From Vulcanimicrobiota bacterium (GTDB lineage Bacteria > Vulcanimicrobiota > Vulcanimicrobiia > Vulcanimicrobiales > Vulcanimicrobiaceae): a stretch of 64,000 nucleotides of DNA. The stretch lies in contig CAWHWQ010000001.1 of assembly GCA_963833095.1 (NCBI GenBank), forward strand, positions 32,001 to 96,000, read 5' to 3'. A program made the position numbers and the translations under genes. A model generated the notes under the pieces. The model saw only the letters and a program-made list of their open reading frames with translations, did not search any database and was not told the DNA's origin. Positions 3,959-15,480 of this stretch are shown here, one piece after another (positions within the stretch are counted from its first letter, which is position 1; each line of letters begins with the position of its first letter).

Positions 3959-4696
3959 CTAGCTCATCTGTCGTTCGGCGAGGTGTACGCTGGTCAACAA
4001 AACGAATCGCGCGCCACCCAACTCGCCGGCTCGATCGTAGAGTGCGCGCAATTCCGCCGTCATCGACTCGTATGCGGGGCCCTCGCGGGGTAGGTACGAG
4101 GCTGAGCGCGTGCGCCCGATAAGCCCTTCCCAGTCCACGGTCTTTTCATGCCGAAAATCGAGCACGCGTACCCGCGTCCACCCGTGTTTGCGCAGGTCGT
4201 CATCGACTGCGGTTTTACGTCGACGGGTCTCCGTGTCGTCCGTCATGTACCGGCGGATGATGTCGCTATATGCGAGCATGAACTGATCGGACTCGTCGCG
4301 CTCGTTCCAAACGGCGGCGAATCGTGCACGCGGACTGCCTATGCGCTCGGCTTCGCCCAGCACACGATCTGGATCGAACCAGTGGTAGGCCTGGAACGCC
4401 GTGATGATGTCCACGCTGCGATCAGGAAGCGTTGTCCCCTCCGCCGTTCCGTCAACCACGACGACGTCGGCCCGAGACGGAATCGACGAACGCATGGCGC
4501 CGTTCGGTTCGATTGCAAAAACGTGCGCGCCCGCATCGGCGAGCAAGACCGACGAAATCCCGGTACCGGCTCCAAGATCGGCAATGCGGGGCTTTGTGAA
4601 TCCGTCGAGTATCGCTGCGATCGCCTCGACCGGATAACTGGGCCGATAACGCGCATAGTCTTCCGCGCGCTTGCTGAACCTCGTCGTCGGATCCAT
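3959..4696 (-). CDS. Class I SAM-dependent methyltransferase
   Basis: YARYRPSYP, IADLGAGTG, AIEPN, AFQAYHWFD. Confidence 0.9.
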   Translation of the reverse strand: MDPTTRFSKRAEDYARYRPSYPVEAIAAILDGFTKPRIADLGAGTGISSVLLADAGAHVFAIEPNGAMRSSIPSRADVVVVDGTAEGTTLPDRSVDIITAFQAYHWFDPDRVLGEAERIGSPRARFAAVWNERDESDQFMLAYSDIIRRYMTDDTETRRRKTAVDDDLRKHGWTRVRVLDFRHEKTVDWEGLIGRTRSASYLPREGPAYESMTAELRALYDRAGELGGARFVLLTSVHLAERQMS

Positions 4697-4707
4697 AACG
4701 CGTGATA

Positions 4708-4944
4708 CTACGGCTTCGGCTCGCTCCCTCGCTCCGCGAGTTTGCCGAGATGCTGGACGACGAGGATCGCAATAATCGTCACGATGACCGCGTAGATAAG
4801 CTCAGCGATCACGCCGTTGCCCGGCTTAAGGAATAAGGCAATGAAATCTGAGATGAACTTATTCCACGCCCCAGCTGCAATCAGGCCGAAAGCCACCGTC
4901 GCGAGCGAGAGCATCGTACCGAAATAGGTCGGTTTGAGTTCCAT
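4708..4944 (-). CDS. Small membrane protein, DUF5654-like
   Basis: Two hydrophobic helices; AFGLIAAGAWN motif; GGAG RBS. Confidence 0.7.
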   Translation of the reverse strand: MELKPTYFGTMLSLATVAFGLIAAGAWNKFISDFIALFLKPGNGVIAELIYAVIVTIIAILVVQHLGKLAERGSEPKP

Positions 4945-4965
4945 GAGAGTCTCCTTATCGTTCGT

Positions 4966-5361
4966 CTACTTAAGGCGGAACCGCACGCACGGATAGCCGA
5001 CGGCGCACGGGTTGTTGACGACGGTCGCTCGGATGTTCCCGTTGGAATCCGCGTTCCTGCCTTGGGTGCTCACGAGCGGATGCGCGCAATTCTTCTGCGC
5101 CGTCATTTCGAAAAGCGCTTCTTCGGGACGTTCGGAGAAGTCGGCGCGGTGGCTATTGCTGTGCGGTCCGACGCAGTACCACGCGATATTCTCAATCCGG
5201 GTGCCGATGATCTTTTCCACCGAGGCGCGCACCGTCACCCAGACCCATCCGTCGCTTTCATTCGCGACGTCGACGGTCCAGTTGCCCGCGGACGCAGGCA
5301 ACGAACTGAGCATGATCGCGCCGGCAATGAGGGTCGCAACGCAGAGTGTCTTGAGTCGCAT
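4966..5361 (-). CDS. Secreted hypothetical protein
   Basis: Signal peptide ending ASA; four Cys in mature part; GAGGTGA RBS. Confidence 0.7.
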   Translation of the reverse strand: MRLKTLCVATLIAGAIMLSSLPASAGNWTVDVANESDGWVWVTVRASVEKIIGTRIENIAWYCVGPHSNSHRADFSERPEEALFEMTAQKNCAHPLVSTQGRNADSNGNIRATVVNNPCAVGYPCVRFRLK

Positions 5362-5379
5362 GGGTCACCTCAAGGAAAG

Positions 5380-5409
5380 AAAAAAGCCCGAAGCAATGCT
5401 TCGAGCTTT
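5380..5409 (-). terminator. Intrinsic terminator of the str-rpsJ operon
   Basis: Minus strand AAAGCTCGAAGCA-T-TGCTTCGGGCTTT hairpin running into a U-tract. Confidence 0.8.
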
Positions 5410-5422
5410 GATGTTTCCGCTG

Positions 5423-5465
5423 CCCTTCGAGGCCCGCCTGCGGCGCGCACCTCAGGGTGACAAAT
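5423..5465. repeat. REP-like palindromic repeat, copy A
   Basis: cccttcgagg...ctcagggtgacaaat; last 15 bp are the exact reverse complement of 5839-5853. Confidence 0.6.
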
Positions 5466-5468
5466 GCA

Positions 5469-5777
5469 CTACGCCTTGAGTTCGATGTCGACGCCGGCTG
5501 GGAGATCGAGGTGCATGAGTGCATCCATCGTCTTGGGCGAGGCTTGAAGGATGTCGATGAGCCGCTTGTGCGTGCGCATCTCGAAGTGCTCGCGCGACTT
5601 CTTGTCGTTATTCGTCGAGCGTTGGACGCAAAAACGGTTGATCTCGGTTGGCAACGGCACCGGACCGCTCACGAACGCACCGGTGCGTTTGGCAGTATCG
5701 ACGATACGCTCGGCCGACTGGTCGAGAACTTTGTGATCGTACGCTTTCAGACGAATGCGAATCTTCTGCTTTGACAT
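5469..5777 (-). CDS. rpsJ: 30S ribosomal protein S10
   Basis: [34 protein letters not shown]. Confidence 0.99.
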
Positions 5778-5818
5778 CTCTATCCTATATTTTCAATGAA
5801 CTCAAGGGGCCAGGGGCT

Positions 5819-5847
5819 ACTCTACCACGGAGTCAGGTATTTGTCAC
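5819..5847 (-). promoter_or_regulatory. Putative internal sigma70 promoter for rpsJ
   Basis: GTGACA (5847-5842), 17 bp spacer, extended -10 TGgTAGAGT (-10 at 5824-5819). Confidence 0.55.
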
Positions 5848-5933
5848 CCTGAGCGTTAGCGCGTAAGCGCGAAGTCGTGTATGGCAGTCTACGGTCGGCT
5901 ACGGCGCTTCGCGCCTACGCTCGGGATGACAAG
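5839..5933. repeat. REP/REPIN-like hairpin element, copy B (tuf-rpsJ spacer)
   Basis: ttgtcaccctgagcgt pairs with acgctcgggatgacaa; ctacgctcgggatgacaag is shared with copies C and D. Confidence 0.75.
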
Positions 5934-5937
5934 GGGA

Positions 5938-7136
<1,199 letters not shown>

Positions 7137-10372: not shown

Positions 10373-11164
10373 TTAATACCAGCCGAGCAAGCGGACTTCC
10401 CCGCTTACCGCGGCAGCCGCGGCTTTGGCTGCTTCCTCGGCCTCACACTCGAGTTCGGCATAAAAGATGTACTCGAACGGACGACCGGGCAGTGGGCGCG
10501 CCACTAGGGCCCGCAGGTTCAGGCCGCGCTCGGCGAAGACGCCGAGCGCCGAATGCAGGCTGCCCGGCTGGTGCGGGAGGACGAACGCCAGCACGGCCCG
10601 CCCGAGGCGTCTCCGGGCGACGCCCTCGCAAGCGATTACAAAGAAGCGCGTGAAGTTTTCCGCCTCGTCTTGGATCGCGTCGGCTAGAACCCGGCCGCCA
10701 TAACGCTGGGCACTTGCCGCCGGACCGATGGCGGCGTGCGCGCGGTCACCTTGGCGAACGATATCTTTGACCGCGCCCGCAGTGTCGGCAACCGCGACGA
10801 CTTCGACGCCGGGGAGCGAGGCAAGAAAGCGCCGGCATTGCTCGAGTGCGACCGGATGCGATTCGACGCGCCGAACACCGTCGAGGCTCGCGCCCTCGAT
10901 CCCGATGAGCGTTTGCACGATCCGATGCACGGTTTCGTCGACAATCGCAACGCGCGGATGCATATAAAGTAGATCGTAGGCGCGCGTCACCGGGCCGTGG
11001 ATGCTGTTCTCGCAGGGAAGCAGACCCACGGGTATCTCGCCGGTGTCGACCGCTTCGACAAGCGCATCGAACGTCGGATAGCCGCGCGATTCGATTGCGC
11101 CGAACAGACGTGCCGCCGCCTCCTCGCTGAAGGCCCCAGGCTCACCTTGAAATCCGACGAGCAT
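10373..11164 (-). CDS. pheA: Prephenate dehydratase
   Basis: FQGEPGAFSE, PCENS, SHPVALEQC, NFTRF, C-terminal ACT domain; start reassigned to MLVGFQG. Confidence 0.92.
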   Translation of the reverse strand: MLVGFQGEPGAFSEEAAARLFGAIESRGYPTFDALVEAVDTGEIPVGLLPCENSIHGPVTRAYDLLYMHPRVAIVDETVHRIVQTLIGIEGASLDGVRRVESHPVALEQCRRFLASLPGVEVVAVADTAGAVKDIVRQGDRAHAAIGPAASAQRYGGRVLADAIQDEAENFTRFFVIACEGVARRRLGRAVLAFVLPHQPGSLHSALGVFAERGLNLRALVARPLPGRPFEYIFYAELECEAEEAAKAAAAAVSGEVRLLGWY

Positions 11165-11903
11165 CGAGAGCCTTTCTAAAACCCTGGAGTTCGCTTTGCA
11201 GTGCATCGCGGTTGGCGGCAAAAATTTCGTCCCACATTTGCGGCGACGACCGGCCCAGGCGCAGCAGCTCGCGCGCCGCCGGTCCGCAGAGCGCATCCAC
11301 CAGCGCAGGATCGCTCGATGCTCGCTCGCTCACGCATTGTGTGAATGCGTAGGCGATAAACTGCGGCAGGTGCGAGGTCAGCGCGACGATTGCATCGTGA
11401 TCGGCTGCATCCACGGCGAGTGACGTCGCGCCGAGCGCCTCGACGAAGACGCGTGCTTGCGCGCTGCGTAGTTCATCTGAGGTCGGCACGAAACACCAGA
11501 TGCGGCCTTCGAACAGATCGCTACGCGCCGCGTCGGGGCCGCGCCGCTCCGCACCGGCCATCGGGTGTGTCGACACGAAGGTCGCAATTCCATCGGCTGC
11601 TCGTACGATTGGCGCTTTCACCGACGCCACATCAATGATGAGCTGATCGTCGCGCAGCGCACGCCACCGCAGTGATGCAACCTCTTCGAGCGTGCCGCTA
11701 ACATGCGCCGCGATGACGACGACATCGGCGCCACCATAGATTTCATCGCGCTCGGCAATGCGATCGATCGCGCCCTTTCGCAATGCGCCGCTTGCGGCAG
11801 CCGGGTCGCGGTCGTATCCCAGCGCCTCCCAGCCGCGTTCGCGCGCGGCAAGCCCGATCGATGCGCCGATCAATCCGGTGCCGATAATGCCAACGCACGG
11901 CAT
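11142..11903 (-). CDS. tyrA: Prephenate dehydrogenase
   Basis: GTGLIGAS, DVASVK, HPMAGAE, HD..ALTSHLP. Confidence 0.92.
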   Translation of the reverse strand: MPCVGIIGTGLIGASIGLAARERGWEALGYDRDPAAASGALRKGAIDRIAERDEIYGGADVVVIAAHVSGTLEEVASLRWRALRDDQLIIDVASVKAPIVRAADGIATFVSTHPMAGAERRGPDAARSDLFEGRIWCFVPTSDELRSAQARVFVEALGATSLAVDAADHDAIVALTSHLPQFIAYAFTQCVSERASSDPALVDALCGPAARELLRLGRSSPQMWDEIFAANRDALQSELQGFRKALDARRISR

Positions 11904-11906
11904 CGG

Positions 11907-12305
11907 CTAGGTCGTCGTCGTACGAGCGAGGTCGGGACGCAACACGACCGCTCCGTCGAGATAGACGTGTTCGATTGCATCGATCGTTCGCGTGGTATTG
12001 ACGTGCATCAGCACGCGAATGACGCGCTCGAGCGACCCGGGAACGTCGATTTCGCAGAAATGCAACATTGGCACGTTCGTCCAGCCCATCTCACGTGCGC
12101 CCAGCGCAGGGAAGACCGCGCGCAGGTCCGGCGTGAGACTGAAAAGCACGGAAGCGATATCATCGATCTCGACCTCATTCCGCTCGATCATTGCAGTCAG
12201 GAGGCGTTTGGTGGCGTCGACGATCGCCGCGCCCTCATCACGCTCGACGGTGATGGCGCCGCGAATACCGCGTACTTTGCAGCCGCGCCACTCCGCTTCT
12301 TTCAT
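11907..12305 (-). CDS. aroH: Chorismate mutase, AroH type
   Basis: VRGIRGAITV, FPALGAR, HVYLDGAVVLRPDL. Confidence 0.93.
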   Translation of the reverse strand: MKEAEWRGCKVRGIRGAITVERDEGAAIVDATKRLLTAMIERNEVEIDDIASVLFSLTPDLRAVFPALGAREMGWTNVPMLHFCEIDVPGSLERVIRVLMHVNTTRTIDAIEHVYLDGAVVLRPDLARTTTT

Positions 12306-14067
12306 ACGCGGACCTGCGGTTGCGACCAGATGTCGATCTGCTCGAGGTCGCGCATGATCGTGCCAAAGTCGTCGAAGGTGAGCGCCTGTTCCTTATCACT
12401 CTTGGCTTCGGGCGGATTGGGATGCACCTCGATGAGCAACCCGTGCGCGCCGACGGCTTTGGCCGCGCGGCACAGCGGGCGCACCCAGCGGCGCACGCCG
12501 ACCCCGTGGCTCGGATCGACCCACACCGGCAGATGCGAGCGCTCCCGTAACACGGGTACCGCCGAGAGATCGAGCGTGTTGCGCGTGGCCTGTTCGAACG
12601 TACGAATGCCGCGTTCGCACAGAATCACGTTGGGATTGCCTTCGGAGAGAATGTACTCGGCTGCGGCAAGTAGCTCGTCGACCGTTGCGGCTAGGCCGCG
12701 CTTGAGCAACACCGGACGCCCGCAGCGCCCGACGGCTTTGAGCAGATCGAAGTTCTGCATGTTGCGCGCGCCGATTTGCAAAACGTCGATTTGCGCGGCC
12801 ATGCGCTCGACCTGATCGATCGTCATCACCTCGCTCACCGTCGGAAGGCCGCTCGCACGCCCCGCTTCAGCGAGCAGCGACACGCCTTCCCAGCCCAGGC
12901 CTTGAAAGGCATACGGGCTGGTGCGCGGTTTGAACGCACCGCCGCGCAACATCACCGCGCCGTGCGCCGCGACCGAACGCGCCGTGTCGAGAATCTGTTC
13001 GCGCGATTCGACCGAACACGGGCCTGCCACGATCGTGAACTCGCCGTCGCCGACGCGCACGCCGCCGATCTGCAGCGTGGTCCCCGGCGGATTTGCCGCG
13101 CGCGAAACACGTGGAAAGGGCGAATCGGCAATCGCGGGCGGCGGAGCGATTTCACGCACCAGTTCGACCAGCGCTTTAGGCGGATCGTCGTTGCGCCCGA
13201 TCGGCTCGCCGACATGCGCGTCGTAGCTCCCTAGCACGGTCAGCGTCTTGCAGGCCTTCTTCAGCTCAGCGAGCGCGTCCGCGACATTCGCATCGTCGAG
13301 ATCACCGTCGAAGTCGACATAAAAGACGCGCTCGGTTCCGTAACCCAGGTGCGGCTTGGACTCGAGCTTGTCGCCGTTGATATTGCGGCTGGCGAGAATG
13401 GCCAGCGCGCCCGCGAGCGACCCCGTGCGCTCCTCGACGGAAAAGATCAGCGACGTCTTGCGCCGCGCAGCTCTTTCGCTAGCGCAAGCACCGGGTTCGA
13501 TGCGCCGCTGTGGCGCGGCCGTACGATGAGGAAGCGCGAGTAGGTACGCGGGTCGTCGCTGCAGTGCGTGGCCAGTTCAATCAAGTCGTAGATCGAGGCG
13601 GCGGCGGGTGAAGCAAGGGCGGCGATCGCCGGATTGCCGCCCCGCGCGACCTCGCGCGCAGCGACGCCGGTGTCTTCGCATGGAATCGCGCGCGCATGAT
13701 CGAGTCCGGCAAGAAACGCGCCGCACTCCGCGAGCACCAGCGGATGGGCGAGAACTTCGCGCACGTCGCGCAGTTCCGCACCACGCACGCCGAGCAGACG
13801 GTGGTCGGTGCGCCACTGAATCTCAGAGACCGGCACGAGATCGAACTCGGCAAGCAGGTCGTAGCCTTCGCGTACCGTCCCGACGATCGCATTCTCGATC
13901 GGGATGACCCCGATCGCGGCACGCGCACCGGCCACGGCGGTTGCCATCTCGCGAAAGCTGGGAAGGCCCACGGTCGGCATTTCGATGCCGTGTTCGCGCA
14001 AAAAGTGCCCGAGCACGAGCTGCGAGTAGGCTCCATCGACTCCTTGGTAGACCGCTGTCATTGCCAT
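12302..14067 (-). CDS. Prephenate-dehydratase-like + ACT + type I-beta DAHP synthase fusion (1-nt frameshift near 13467)
   Basis: PDT fold in 13447-14067; after a shift the frame reads RKTSLIFSVEERTGSLAGAL...LESKP...FYVDFDG...VLGSY straight into DAHP synthase (AGPCSVES, GGAFKPRTS, IGARNMQN, LKRG, CERG, DPSH). Confidence 0.85.
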
Positions 14068-14079
14068 TGCCCCTGATTG

Positions 14080-14116
14080 AAAAAGAACGAGTCCCCACTT
14101 CGGCGGGGACTCGTTC
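14080..14116 (-). terminator. Attenuator terminator of the aromatic amino-acid operon
   Basis: GAACGAGTCCCCGC-CGAA-GTGGGGACTCGTTC followed by TTTTT, just upstream of the first start codon. Confidence 0.85.
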
Positions 14117-14157
14117 GTGCATTTTACGCGTGTTCTGCGGCTTCTTGCCGGCCAGCC

Positions 14158-14238
14158 TTATGCGTGCGCGAATCCCCTTGGGCCACCCAGGCCAAAGTAG
14201 TAATACCAAAACGCGTAGCTAAAGCTGTGGACAGTCAC
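14158..14238 (-). CDS. Leader peptide MTVHSFSYAFWYYYFGLGGPRGFAHA (26 aa)
   Basis: GTG..TAA read directly; six consecutive aromatic codons FWYYYF; TTGACA at 14277-14272 upstream. Confidence 0.85.
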   Translation of the reverse strand: MTVHSFSYAFWYYYFGLGGPRGFAHA

Positions 14239-14285
14239 GTTGCGGCTATGCAATCACATCCCGGCGGCGCCTGTCAAGCCGCGAG

Positions 14286-14669
14286 CTAGGAATTGAGCAC
14301 CTTTCGGAGCTCTGCGGCGATCTCGGTATGGCTGTAGCCGCGGTGGCGCAGCGAATCCACAAAGCGTAGCGCCGCGTCGGCAAGGGCGTTCGATCGCGCG
14401 CGCCGGTCGGTCGCGGGCGTCTTACTCGCCACGCGGGTCCCACGCCTCCCCTCGCTGACCAACCACCCCGCATCCTGGAGATCCGCGTAGGCTCGCGCCA
14501 CGGTGTTGGGCGCAACGCCTAAATCCCCCGCGAGTTGGCGCACCGTCGGCAAGGGCGCATCGGGCGCGAGCGTACCGCGCTCGACCGCCGCACGAATCTG
14601 CTCGAAGATCTGTTGATAGGGCGGCGTTTCGATTTGCGGATCAACCGCGATGAGCGCGTCGTCGGACAT
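14286..14669 (-). CDS. GntR-family (YtrA-like) transcriptional regulator
   Basis: PYQQIFEQI, LPTVRQLA, NTVARAY, GRRGTRV; short C-terminal domain. Confidence 0.92.
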   Translation of the reverse strand: MSDDALIAVDPQIETPPYQQIFEQIRAAVERGTLAPDAPLPTVRQLAGDLGVAPNTVARAYADLQDAGWLVSEGRRGTRVASKTPATDRRARSNALADAALRFVDSLRHRGYSHTEIAAELRKVLNS

Positions 14670-14673
14670 TTGC

Positions 14674-15441
14674 CTAACGAAAAACCACGATCGCGCGACG
14701 CACGAGCAAAGGGACGACGAATCCGCACCACGCGCCGAAAACTAGGACATAGGCTATCCTATGGAGCAGCGTGCCCGGCGTATGCACCGAGACCATTGCA
14801 ACGAAAACCAGCGGGACGCCCATGCCGACGGCAAACAATCCGAGCACGCGACAACGGCGGATTCGATTATCGACATAAAGTTCGGTTTCTGGATCGCTGC
14901 CCGACATAATCGACGCCATTGAGTTTGACGCGACGGCAAAGCCAAACGTCGCGAGCGCGGCGAGCGTGACGCAGATCGATGCAATCGCGGATTGCGGCGC
15001 GTCGAGAAAGGCCAGTGGCGCGACGGATACTATCGCCGCGGCTGGATACCAAGGCAGCGGAACGACGGAGGTCAGGGTGCGTGGCGCGAGCGCTGCGGCG
15101 CGCGTCGCTCCGCGATTGCGAAGTCGCAGATACGACGTTCCCAAACTTGTCACGAAGGCGCACGTGCCGAATCCGTAGCCGATGATCCCGCTAAGTGCGC
15201 CTCCGAGTACCGCGGCGCCGAGCAGAACGTTGATGATTCCCGGGATATACCAGGCGGCGAGCGGAAGCGCTTCGAGCTCTTGACGGCGCGCGACGGTTTC
15301 ATAGAGTCCTGGCAAGCAATCGTCGCGGAAGTACCGGCGCAGATCGTTCAACGCGCGGGCGCGTACGACCAAGTACATACCGAATCCGACGAGGAAGAGC
15401 CCAAGATACCAACGTTCGAACGCCATGTTCCAAATCATCAT
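14674..15441 (-). CDS. Multi-pass membrane protein
   Basis: About 6-7 hydrophobic segments; immediately upstream of the GntR gene. Confidence 0.7.
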   Translation of the reverse strand: MMIWNMAFERWYLGLFLVGFGMYLVVRARALNDLRRYFRDDCLPGLYETVARRQELEALPLAAWYIPGIINVLLGAAVLGGALSGIIGYGFGTCAFVTSLGTSYLRLRNRGATRAAALAPRTLTSVVPLPWYPAAAIVSVAPLAFLDAPQSAIASICVTLAALATFGFAVASNSMASIMSGSDPETELYVDNRIRRCRVLGLFAVGMGVPLVFVAMVSVHTPGTLLHRIAYVLVFGAWCGFVVPLLVRRAIVVFR

Positions 15442-15480
15442 TGTATCTATATACTAATACAAACCTAGGTTTTGTGTCAA
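15441..15480 (-). promoter_or_regulatory. Promoter with overlapping YtrA-type GntR operator
   Basis: TTGACA (15480-15475), 18 bp spacer, TAGTAT; inverted repeat TTGTAT-N10-ATACAA at 15441-15462. Confidence 0.65.

Follow-up and report, generated by a model that had tools for sequence, protein, structure and literature searches.

Some leader peptides in E. coli are read by more than one amino acid: that of ilvGMEDA by Ile, Leu and Val, and that of thr by Thr and Ile. Among aromatic leaders, that of E. coli pheL is confined to Phe codons, and its start is led by a Shine-Dalgarno sequence.

Comparable leaders are described in actinobacteria. In Corynebacterium glutamicum, the aroF operon, which encodes DAHP synthase, is preceded by the Phe-Tyr-Phe leader aroR, which is reported to respond to Phe and not to Tyr (Neshat et al. 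2014, as reviewed in PMC11802643). Leaderless leader peptides are reported for Streptomyces lividans trpL1, leuL and ilvL (PMC8079986) and for ilvB of C. diphtheriae (PMC5784534). A 2010 survey placed leader-peptide attenuation only in Proteobacteria, Actinobacteria and, newly, Firmicutes (PMC2965389). A literature search combining Eremiobacterota with attenuators found no paper, and no phylum name appeared among the matches listed for Eremiobacter- or Vulcanimicrobi- names with leader peptides, attenuation or riboswitches.

We found a short aromatic leader ORF and a terminator ahead of an aromatic operon in a stretch of Vulcanimicrobiota DNA (64,000 nucleotides in all, the window). In all likelihood, this element is a classical ribosome-mediated leader-peptide transcription attenuator of a five-function aromatic operon. 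Its features, and the operon, lie on the minus strand. The leader ORF (14238..14158) starts with GTG, has 26 sense codons and ends with TAA at 14160-14158; its peptide is MTVHSFSYAFWYYYFGLGGPRGFAHA. Codons 6-15 (14223..14194) read F-S-Y-A-F-W-Y-Y-Y-F, with three Phe, four Tyr and one Trp codon. The leader's fourth Phe, codon 23, is outside this run. A preliminary description had pointed out this unannotated ORF and its aromatic run, and both were confirmed on the minus-strand sequence. With 8 aromatic residues in 10, the run is the most aromatic of the 104,956 stop-free 10-mers in the six frames of the 64-kb window; 10-mers with 7 occur at a single unrelated site. The ORF is on the operon strand, 90 nt upstream of the first gene. 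A scan of the whole window, with 6 strong terminators, found no other pairing of a terminator with a biased short ORF.

The operon's first gene (14067..12302, ATG at 14067) encodes a fusion of prephenate dehydratase (PDT), an ACT domain and a type I-beta DAHP synthase (DAHPS), and is interrupted by a frameshift near 13450-13460. Pfam places PDT at 13447-14067 and DAHP_synth_1 at 12302-13237; the ACT domain runs on into DAHPS without a break, in a frame other than that of PDT. Intact fusion ORFs of 588 aa (locus L003) and 624 aa (L037), with PDT, ACT and DAHP_synth_1, are present in relatives, and relative to L003 and L001 the window gene carries 2 additional bases. The frameshift may mean that the operon is damaged in the window or that the assembly contains indel errors; a split tuf gene was also seen. 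The operon had been described as beginning with DAHP synthase; in fact the gene begins with the PDT domain and has DAHPS at its C-terminal end. No PDT-DAHP synthase fusion was apparent among the papers listed in our literature search, and PMC2700814 describes none. The fusion gene is followed by an AroH-type chorismate mutase (12305..11907; Pfam CM_1, E = 1.3e-44), a prephenate dehydrogenase (tyrA, 11903..11142; PDH_N and PDH_C), and a second, stand-alone prephenate dehydratase with ACT (pheA, 11164..10373; PDT and a sub-threshold ACT on ORF 10373-11296). The pheA start at 11164, at MLVGFQGEPG, was inferred from reading the translation. The operon encodes enzymes of the Phe and Tyr branches together with DAHPS and chorismate mutase, and no Trp-branch enzyme. 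This gene content agrees with the leader's codons. Upstream of the leader is a GntR-family gene (14286-14669), which ends 8 nt ahead of the leader's TTGACA box.

The leader is conserved in related loci from many Eremiobacterota. We compared the best 80 of 139 confirmed relatives (genome_contigs), 79 of which have upstream sequence. In 52 of these 79 loci the orthologous gene is directly preceded by an equivalent leader and terminator, giving 53 leaders with the window's own. The preliminary description had staked its proposal on conservation of the leader and had called for an alignment of orthologous upstream regions; the leader is kept in 52/79 loci, and the terminator covaries (below). The 52 leader-bearing loci span 22 sequence clades, and the leader is absent from 13 Vulcanimicrobiota-like relatives among the same best 80. 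If these leaders are one attenuator family, it would be old enough to have split into 22 or more sequence clades, with three or more losses (judged on a quick IQ-TREE tree with SH-aLRT support only). A scan of the best 80 relatives' loci found no leader-like aromatic runs elsewhere.

The 53 leaders encode 50 distinct peptides of 17-30 aa, whose sequences differ widely between clades. Every one of the 50 contains Tyr, 44 contain Phe and 42 contain Trp. Leader composition is 9.9% Phe, 15.7% Tyr and 3.7% Trp, compared to 3.9%, 2.4% and 1.7% in 11 window ORFs. In a set of 14 close relatives the 30-nt run varies at 9 columns, and each of these shows only Phe-Tyr or Ser-Tyr exchanges or synonymous changes.

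Based on this codon usage, Tyr and Phe are likely sensed by the leader, and sensing of Trp is plausible but unproven. The preliminary description had proposed that Phe, Tyr and Trp are read together, a reading drawn from codon content only. Trp is usually a single codon per leader, often inside an RNA stem. DAHP synthase also supplies the Trp branch. We offer tentatively the possibility of a true three-input attenuator, in which the charging states of tRNA-Tyr, tRNA-Phe and tRNA-Trp would be combined by one leaderless leader of 26 codons. Such a leader would gate the PDT-ACT-DAHP synthase fusion together with both terminal branches, and through its conserved single Trp codon the common entry step would gain a Trp input, undescribed in aromatic leaders.

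Our results might also indicate that the attenuator senses Tyr and/or Phe only, with the Trp codon kept for RNA pairing or by chance; we regard this as a serious, if somewhat doubtful, candidate. Trp is missing from 8 of the 50 distinct peptides and is mostly one codon where present, and Tyr averages about four codons per leader. The window's UGG is part of UUUUGG, a segment whose predicted partner is CCAAGG, and in L037-type leaders the UGG codon begins a UGGCCG stem arm. The absence of Trp-branch genes from the operon is also consistent with this explanation, as is the precedent of C. glutamicum aroR, which has a Tyr codon and yet is reported to be unaffected by Tyr availability (PMC11802643). 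In contrast, the occurrence of Trp in 42/50 leaders exceeds the ~34% expected for 24-aa peptides at the 1.7% Trp of the window genes. Furthermore, the Trp codon is always in or at the edge of the aromatic run while its position varies by clade, which looks like selection for the codon itself.

The strong terminator noted at 14116..14080 in the preliminary description was borne out. It consists of a 14-bp stem (14116-14085) and TTTTT (14084-14080). The 5' arm is at 14116-14103, the loop is CGAA, and the 3' arm is at 14098-14085. Nine of the 14 pairs are G-C, and the hairpin alone has a predicted energy of -27.6 kcal/mol. A scan for perfect stems found the terminator in 51/53 leaders, as G+C-rich stems of 8-16 bp with T-rich tails. 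Covariation in the terminator is strong: 89.4% of cells are paired in alignment A2, 12 of 14 pairs have changed on both sides, and none of 500 shuffles matched these pairing and covariation values. A Shine-Dalgarno-like AGGGG is located at 14074-14070, approximately 5-10 nt past the end of the hairpin.

A predicted antiterminator 5' strand, GGGGAUUCG (14177..14169, codons 21-24), is complementary to CGAGUCCCC (14113-14105) in the 5' arm of the terminator, with 9 pairs, one of them G-U. The complementarity of codons 21-24 to the terminator arm had been pointed out in the preliminary description and was confirmed at these positions. In single sequences, the statistics are weak. The antiterminator duplex has an energy of -19.7 kcal/mol compared to -15.0 +/- 2.5 kcal/mol for shuffles (z = -1.9, not significant by itself), and the fold of the whole region of the window leader is unremarkable (z = -1.84). 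We therefore did not rely on these values and looked to conservation in relatives for support.

The relatives gave moderate support for the putative antiterminator. With RNAalifold on the MAFFT alignment, whether at full length or truncated ahead of the 3' arm, the terminator core was the sole element recovered and the antiterminator was missing, so we used duplex energies and hand-mapped columns instead. Among 36 representatives, cognate duplexes of strand and arm averaged -21.0 kcal/mol and non-cognate ones -18.2 kcal/mol, a difference reached in 0 of 10,000 permutations. At the level of the 22 clades, the values were -20.5 and -18.3 kcal/mol (p ~0.001), and the cognate arm was the best partner in just 3/22 rows and 5/22 columns of the clade matrix. 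In a fixed-column alignment, 66.9% of antiterminator cells were paired, compared to 36.6-45.5% after sliding by 1-3 columns. Four of five antiterminator measures in this alignment were within the range of shuffles. The observed value was reached by 42/500 shuffles for percent paired, 193/500 for pairs changed on both sides, 455/500 for further pair types, and 83/500 for the covariation score.

The position of the antiterminator strand fits control by a ribosome. The preliminary description had claimed that a stalled ribosome frees this strand and that a ribosome at the stop codon masks it, and had suggested folding the alternative structures. Folds of the nascent transcript behaved as claimed: the antiterminator formed in free RNA or with the ribosome stalled at F15, and was absent once the ribosome had reached the stop codon. 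Equilibrium folds of the full leader did not: the terminator was in the minimum free energy (MFE) structure whatever the ribosome mask. A thermodynamic switch was rejected on this ground, since ribosome-masked equilibrium folds kept the terminator every time, and a switch at this site must be kinetic. Consistent with the predicted masking, the antiterminator strand overlaps the footprint of a terminating ribosome by at least 6 nt in 49/51 leaders.

Two other RNA motifs lie between the start of the codon run and the antiterminator strand. For a candidate region 1, CGCGUUUUGG (14215..14206), folding of ribosome-free RNA predicts pairing with 14181-14176 and 14170-14167, a putative anti-antiterminator or pause helix that overlaps the codon run. 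The GCG codon (in a GCGUA segment) and its yGCGC partner are conserved across relatives, with invariant pairs, and the covariation test of relatives found no covariation or compensatory change in this proposed 1:2 pairing. Directly after the codon run, a small hairpin, GGCC-UGGGU-GGCC (14193..14181), is present in the MFE and centroid folds. A G+C-rich hairpin is visible at its position in alignments of relatives; it is possibly a pause or spacer hairpin.

We suggest the following mechanism. Transcription would start at GTG 14238 or within ~3 nt of it, and the leader would be translated from leaderless mRNA. When charged tRNA-Tyr or tRNA-Phe (possibly also tRNA-Trp) is scarce, a ribosome would stall in codons 6-15, covering region 1 and leaving GGGGAUUCG free. 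The free strand would pair with 14113-14105 once that arm is made, so that no terminator forms and polymerase enters the operon. When the aromatic tRNAs are charged, the ribosome would reach the TAA and cover the antiterminator strand; the 14-bp terminator would then form and transcription would stop at 14084-14080. A 9-bp antiterminator could beat the 14-bp terminator only kinetically.

Stalling of the ribosome might also act through something beyond intrinsic termination, such as polarity that depends on Rho, the stability of the mRNA or how the first gene is translated. We think this improbable. The T-runs after the hairpin are weak in some relatives, for example in the tails of L017 and L032, and the closeness of the hairpin end to AGGGG would be compatible with an effect on translation. 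However, the Shine-Dalgarno sequence and start codon of the first gene lie outside the terminator hairpin, and G+C-rich stems with T-rich tails prevail, in 51 of 53 leaders.

We found that promoter geometry at the leader is conserved. A -35 box, TTGACA (14277..14272), is followed after 18 nt by an extended -10-like element, TG-a-TTGCAT (14256..14248), which ends 9 nt before the GTG. TTGAC is kept in 53/53 leaders, at 29-34 nt (mode 33) from the start codon, and tgTGgTTnnAT is conserved position by position in 51 distinct promoter regions. The -10-like element is non-canonical, with T at hexamer position 2, and a consensus promoter scan of the window did not call the leader promoter. The 9 nt ahead of GTG 14238 (agccgcaac) contain no Shine-Dalgarno-like sequence, and across the 53 leaders the -10-like element takes the position where one would be. 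With no room for a Shine-Dalgarno sequence between the TTGAC-anchored promoter and the start, the mRNA is probably leaderless or nearly so. This start is judged from the promoter geometry only (TTGACA-18-TTGCAT-9-GTG), and the fixed spacing favors the suggestion in the preliminary description that TTGACA without a Shine-Dalgarno sequence might mean a leaderless start. Of the 53 leaders, 34 begin with ATG, 18 with GTG and 1 with ATC; a GTG start on leaderless mRNA may be weak. A neighboring gene, with its ATG at 15441, has the same 18/9 promoter-to-start geometry.

It is very unlikely that the ORF is untranslated and the element an RNA-only or protein-dependent antiterminator (riboswitch-like, T-box-like, or the target of an RNA-binding regulator). 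In favor of this reading, the window's ORF starts with GTG and has no Shine-Dalgarno sequence, and there are conserved RNA motifs, such as GUUUGCGC and the GCG codon, that exceed what the peptide needs. However, the reading frame is open in 53/53 leaders and starts at a fixed distance from the promoter, and substitutions keep the frame and the aromatic residues despite divergence of the peptides between clades. No Rfam family, T-box included, fits the element. The window region had no match to the leader families (Phe_leader, Trp_leader and others) or T-box at E <= 10, the whole window had none at gathering score, and five relatives had no relevant family at E <= 1. A sub-threshold rnk_pseudo match (27.9 compared to 55 bits) overlaps the leader region of L016.

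The notion that the hairpin is the terminator of the upstream GntR-family gene, with an aromatic ORF by chance, has a negligible probability: that gene ends close to TTGACA and lacks a separate terminator ahead of the leader, but the PDT gene keeps the whole set of leader, promoter and terminator upstream of it where the sequence further upstream differs (for example L009, L013, L066, L014-L064), the aromatic run is 1 in 104,956 window 10-mers, and the element is present in 52 loci among the best 80 of 139 relatives.

The computational tests able to refute a ribosome-mediated attenuator, as the preliminary description had called the element, all came out in its favor. It is very probably an attenuator new for its phylum and of a kind already known. 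If so, no family of leader-peptide attenuators would have been described before it for Eremiobacterota/Vulcanimicrobiota, and leader-peptide attenuation from leaderless mRNA would reach a phylum known almost solely from metagenomes. The approximately 50 natural variants of one switch could seed an RNA family model, and annotation of Eremiobacterota, in whose genomes these leader ORFs are unannotated, could improve. Interleaved Tyr, Phe and Trp codons precede a DAHP synthase that is joined in one fusion with an ACT domain and an enzyme of the Phe branch, a testable case of one combined aromatic operon balancing three end products.

The nearest precedent appears to be C. glutamicum aroR-aroF, which this leader resembles in function only. 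Like aroR (PMC11802643), it is an apparent attenuator before a DAHP synthase operon, with codons for more than one aromatic amino acid, outside the Proteobacteria. In contrast, aroR has three aromatic codons and no Trp, and in the window leader 8 of the 10 codons in the run are aromatic, one of them Trp; aroR is from Actinomycetota, and here the host is Eremiobacterota/Vulcanimicrobiota and the first gene a PDT-ACT-DAHPS fusion. The arrangement also recalls E. coli pheL-pheA, which has a short leader ORF with a run of Phe codons, a terminator and an antiterminator before a prephenate dehydratase gene (PMC3082878). Unlike pheL, which Rfam models as Phe_leader, the leader has no Rfam match and hence no detectable homology. 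With the actinobacterial leaderless leaders it shares a short peptide with regulatory codons followed by a hairpin and U-run; those leaders belong to another phylum and sense other amino acids, and their leaderless starts rest on mapped 5' ends, whereas promoter geometry alone indicates the start here (PMC8079986, PMC5784534). As in E. coli ilvGMEDA and thr, codons for more than one end product of a branched pathway stand in the same leader; here the pathway is a different one, and codons for three amino acids are interleaved in a single 10-codon run.

We found that the minus strand carries every sequence element named in the preliminary description, a model's reading of 14080..14277, from sequence alone, as an attenuator sensing Phe, Tyr and Trp (direct reading and terminator scan). 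A -35 box, TTGACA (14277-14272), and a -10-like element, TG-a-TTGCAT (14256-14248), precede a 26-codon leader ORF with a GTG start at 14238 and a TAA stop (14160-14158), which encodes MTVHSFSYAFWYYYFGLGGPRGFAHA. Codons 6-15 (14223-14194) encode the run F-S-Y-A-F-W-Y-Y-Y-F, the most aromatic of 104,956 stop-free 10-mers in the six frames of the whole window. The terminator hairpin (14116-14085) has 14 bp and a CGAA loop, folds in isolation at -27.6 kcal/mol, and is directly followed by TTTTT (14084-14080). The putative antiterminator 5' strand, GGGGAUUCG (14177-14169), is complementary to CGAGUCCCC (14113-14105) within the 5' arm of the hairpin. Taken on their own, neither the fold of the leader region (z = -1.84) nor this 9-bp complementarity (z = -1.9) was significant.

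The leader is conserved in relatives. Protein hits and locus titles assign the window to Eremiobacterota/Vulcanimicrobiota. An alignment of the prephenate dehydratase (PDT) domain and 13 close homologues served as the query against one genome per GTDB species. It matched 172 stretches, of which 139 could be confirmed as relatives, and we analyzed the best 80 of the 139. One locus (L010) was without upstream sequence, leaving 79. A short ORF with an aromatic run lay 60-150 nt before the gene in 52 of these 79 loci, and a check of upstream regions for conserved F/Y/W runs was positive. No leader-like aromatic ORF was found elsewhere in any of the loci, all of which were scanned.

The 53 leaders (window plus 52 loci) encode 50 distinct peptides of 17-30 aa, of which 50 contain Tyr, 44 Phe and 42 Trp. 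Their composition (F 9.9%, Y 15.7%, W 3.7%) compares with 3.9%, 2.4% and 1.7% in 11 window ORFs. Peptides differ widely between clades (YAYWYY, WYAYSY, FAYYYYF, FSYAYYYFW, FYAYYFYW, FGFYFFYFF), and the aromatic run is the constant feature. Among the 14 closest sequences, nine columns of the 30-nt run vary, and every change is Phe<->Tyr, Ser<->Tyr or synonymous. This pattern marks the in-frame aromatic codons as being under selection. Trp, mostly a single codon per leader, may be partly retained for RNA pairing. Codon choice differed from that of window genes: Phe TTT:TTC was 80:41 in leaders vs 36:87 in genes, and Tyr TAT:TAC was 94:97 vs 24:51. U-ending codons are thus favored in leaders and C-ending ones in genes; possible effects of the U-ending codons are slower decoding or a run kept free of structure.

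The promoter lies at a nearly fixed distance from the leader. A TTGAC box was found 29-34 nt before the start codon in 53/53 leaders (33 nt in 27), and a conserved element, tgTGgTTnnAT, stops 7-10 nt short of the start codon, occupying the Shine-Dalgarno space. In the window, the 9 bases between the -10-like element and the GTG contain no Shine-Dalgarno-like sequence, confirming the earlier remark that TTGACA lies upstream without an evident Shine-Dalgarno. The upstream gene for a 255-aa membrane protein (14674-15441, minus strand; ATG at 15441) has the identical layout, TTGACA-18-TAGTAT-9-ATG (15439-15480). The fixed geometry and its recurrence at 15441 support a leaderless or near-leaderless (0-3 nt) leader mRNA, as the preliminary description had tentatively proposed, and the recurrence suggests that this genome uses leaderless genes. 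The -10 element is non-canonical (T instead of A at position 2), and a consensus promoter scan did not call it. Starts are in frame (34 ATG, 18 GTG, 1 ATC); the ATC, at about 2692 of locus L046, could be explained by rare start-codon use, an error or decay of the leader.

We found strong covariation in the terminator. In 51/53 leaders there is a perfectly paired, G+C-rich stem, 8-16 bp long and followed by a T-rich tail; the other two (L043, L079) have imperfect hairpins followed by T-runs, seen by eye. In a MAFFT alignment of 51 distinct leader regions, 89.4% of terminator cells were paired (43-55% in slid controls) and 12 of 14 pairs had changed on both sides, values matched by 0/500 shuffles.

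The antiterminator pairing is moderately supported. For every leader we took the best duplex between the segment after the run and the terminator 5' arm; its 5' strand lies immediately ahead of the stop codon or spans it. With an assumed footprint of -16 to +13 for a terminating ribosome, the overlap is at least 6 nt in 49/51 leaders. On fixed columns, 66.9% of cells were paired, compared with 36.6-45.5% when slid, and 31 cells had changed on both sides (reached by 2/500 shuffles). The other four fixed-column measures fell inside the shuffle range, in part owing to bulges that put the strands out of register. In a test independent of register, on 36 representatives, cognate duplexes averaged -21.0 vs -18.2 kcal/mol for non-cognate ones (0/10,000 permutations as low). 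When each of 22 clades contributed a single representative, the values were -20.5 vs -18.3 (p about 0.001), and the cognate arm was the single best partner in only 3/22 rows.

An alanine codon, mostly GCG, sits mid-run (Y-A-Y; alignment columns 25-33, window 14212-14217). Its conservation exceeds what the peptide would call for, and a conserved yGCGC near the stop codon may be its pairing partner. In the window, CGCGUUUUGG (14215-14206) is predicted to pair with CCAAGG/CGCG (14181-14167) as region 1:2, which would explain the conserved GCG. This pairing is unproven, because its pairs are invariant and no covariation was found in the leader alignment.

Folding of alternative structures agreed with the proposed switch. 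Folded as a transcript ending at 14099, before the 3' arm, the RNA contained the GGGGAUUCG:CGAGUCCCC helix both when unbound (-42.1 kcal/mol) and when carrying a stalled ribosome whose A site held F15 (-28.7), and lacked it with a ribosome at the stop codon (-2.3). Wherever it occurred in codons 6-15, a stall would cover region 1 and keep 14177-14169 accessible; once at the TAA, the ribosome would cover that strand. Because every full-length equilibrium fold contains the terminator, the decision would have to be kinetic, as in classical attenuators. We consider the mechanism of the preliminary description very probably the best explanation; three-way sensing of Phe, Tyr and Trp is plausible but unproven.

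The leader is absent from 27/79 loci, 13 Vulcanimicrobiota-like (L020, L023-L028, L030, L031, L033, L044, L049, L057) and 14 mostly titled Myxococcota or 'delta proteobacterium'. In a PDT-domain tree from a quick maximum-likelihood search (81 rows, SH-aLRT support only), the leader-less Vulcanimicrobiota loci form three nested groups inside leader-bearing lineages, and 10 of the 13 make up one well-supported clade. Presence and absence require at least 5 changes vs 22.9 with shuffled labels. These results fit an old element secondarily lost in some lineages, and the 13 loci look like such losses. L024 retains a truncated ORF, FAFSYWDGFAHA*, without a terminator. Nine loci with a leader and a Vulcanimicrobiota-type PDT gene (L002, L007, L011, L013, L017, L029, L036, L058, L061) are titled Alphaproteobacteria, Acidiferrales, Verrucomicrobiia, Acidimicrobiaceae or Binatia, and are probably mislabelled or mis-binned MAG contigs.

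The operon was said to begin with DAHP synthase. That domain is in the first gene, but the gene is a PDT-ACT-DAHP synthase fusion with PDT first (Pfam and a three-frame translation), frameshifted in the window. PDT (13447-14067, minus strand, as are the genes below) is a 206-aa ORF; ACT shares its frame with type I DAHP synthase (12302-13237), a frame different from that of PDT and without its own start. The fusion is a single ORF in L003 (97% identical to the window; 588 aa, 4001-5767) and L037 (624 aa, 3977-5851), both with PDT, ACT and DAHP_synth_1, and the window linker has 2 extra bases (about 13450-13460) relative to L003 and L001. Either an assembly indel or a genuine disruption could account for the extra bases. 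The str ribosomal operon lies downstream. The tuf gene (EF-Tu; 5938-7136) reads as two ORFs that overlap (6489-7136 and 5938-6549), an indication of a second frameshift; together the splits suggest assembly indels. AroH-type chorismate mutase (11907-12305), prephenate dehydrogenase (11142-11903) and a stand-alone PDT with its own ACT domain (10373-11296) follow the fusion (12302-14067), giving the operon two prephenate dehydratases. A GntR-family gene (127 aa, HTH domain only; 14286-14669) ends 8 nt before the leader -35 box and adjoins the leader in the closest relatives only. We know of no described DAHP synthase carrying a whole N-terminal PDT-ACT module, and a literature search showed no PDT-DAHP synthase fusion in the titles or abstract beginnings of the papers listed.

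No Rfam family matched the window region (E <= 10), the whole window (gathering score) or five relatives (E <= 1), a sub-threshold rnk_pseudo hit in one relative aside, and a literature search found no paper combining Eremiobacterota and 'attenuator'. Multivalent leaders are known for ilv and thr, and are among the closest described systems. Portions of two surveys report that Phe and Tyr genes of Actinobacteria yielded no RNA elements (2005; PMC1262725) and that the known leader peptides came from Proteobacteria and Actinobacteria alone, with Firmicutes newly added (2010; PMC2965389). Also close are E. coli pheL-pheA (excerpts of PMC3082878) and C. glutamicum aroR-aroF, in which the aroR leader (Phe-Tyr-Phe) precedes the aroF DAHP synthase operon and reportedly responds to Phe, not Tyr (excerpts of PMC11802643). 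Streptomyces and Corynebacterium offer a further parallel in their documented leaderless leader peptides (excerpts of PMC8079986, PMC5784534), the window's leaderless start being deduced from geometry. Set beside these systems, the window would hold a leader-peptide attenuator in a phylum without any described so far, with an unusual abundance and mixture of aromatic codons in the leader and an unusual fused gene directly after it.
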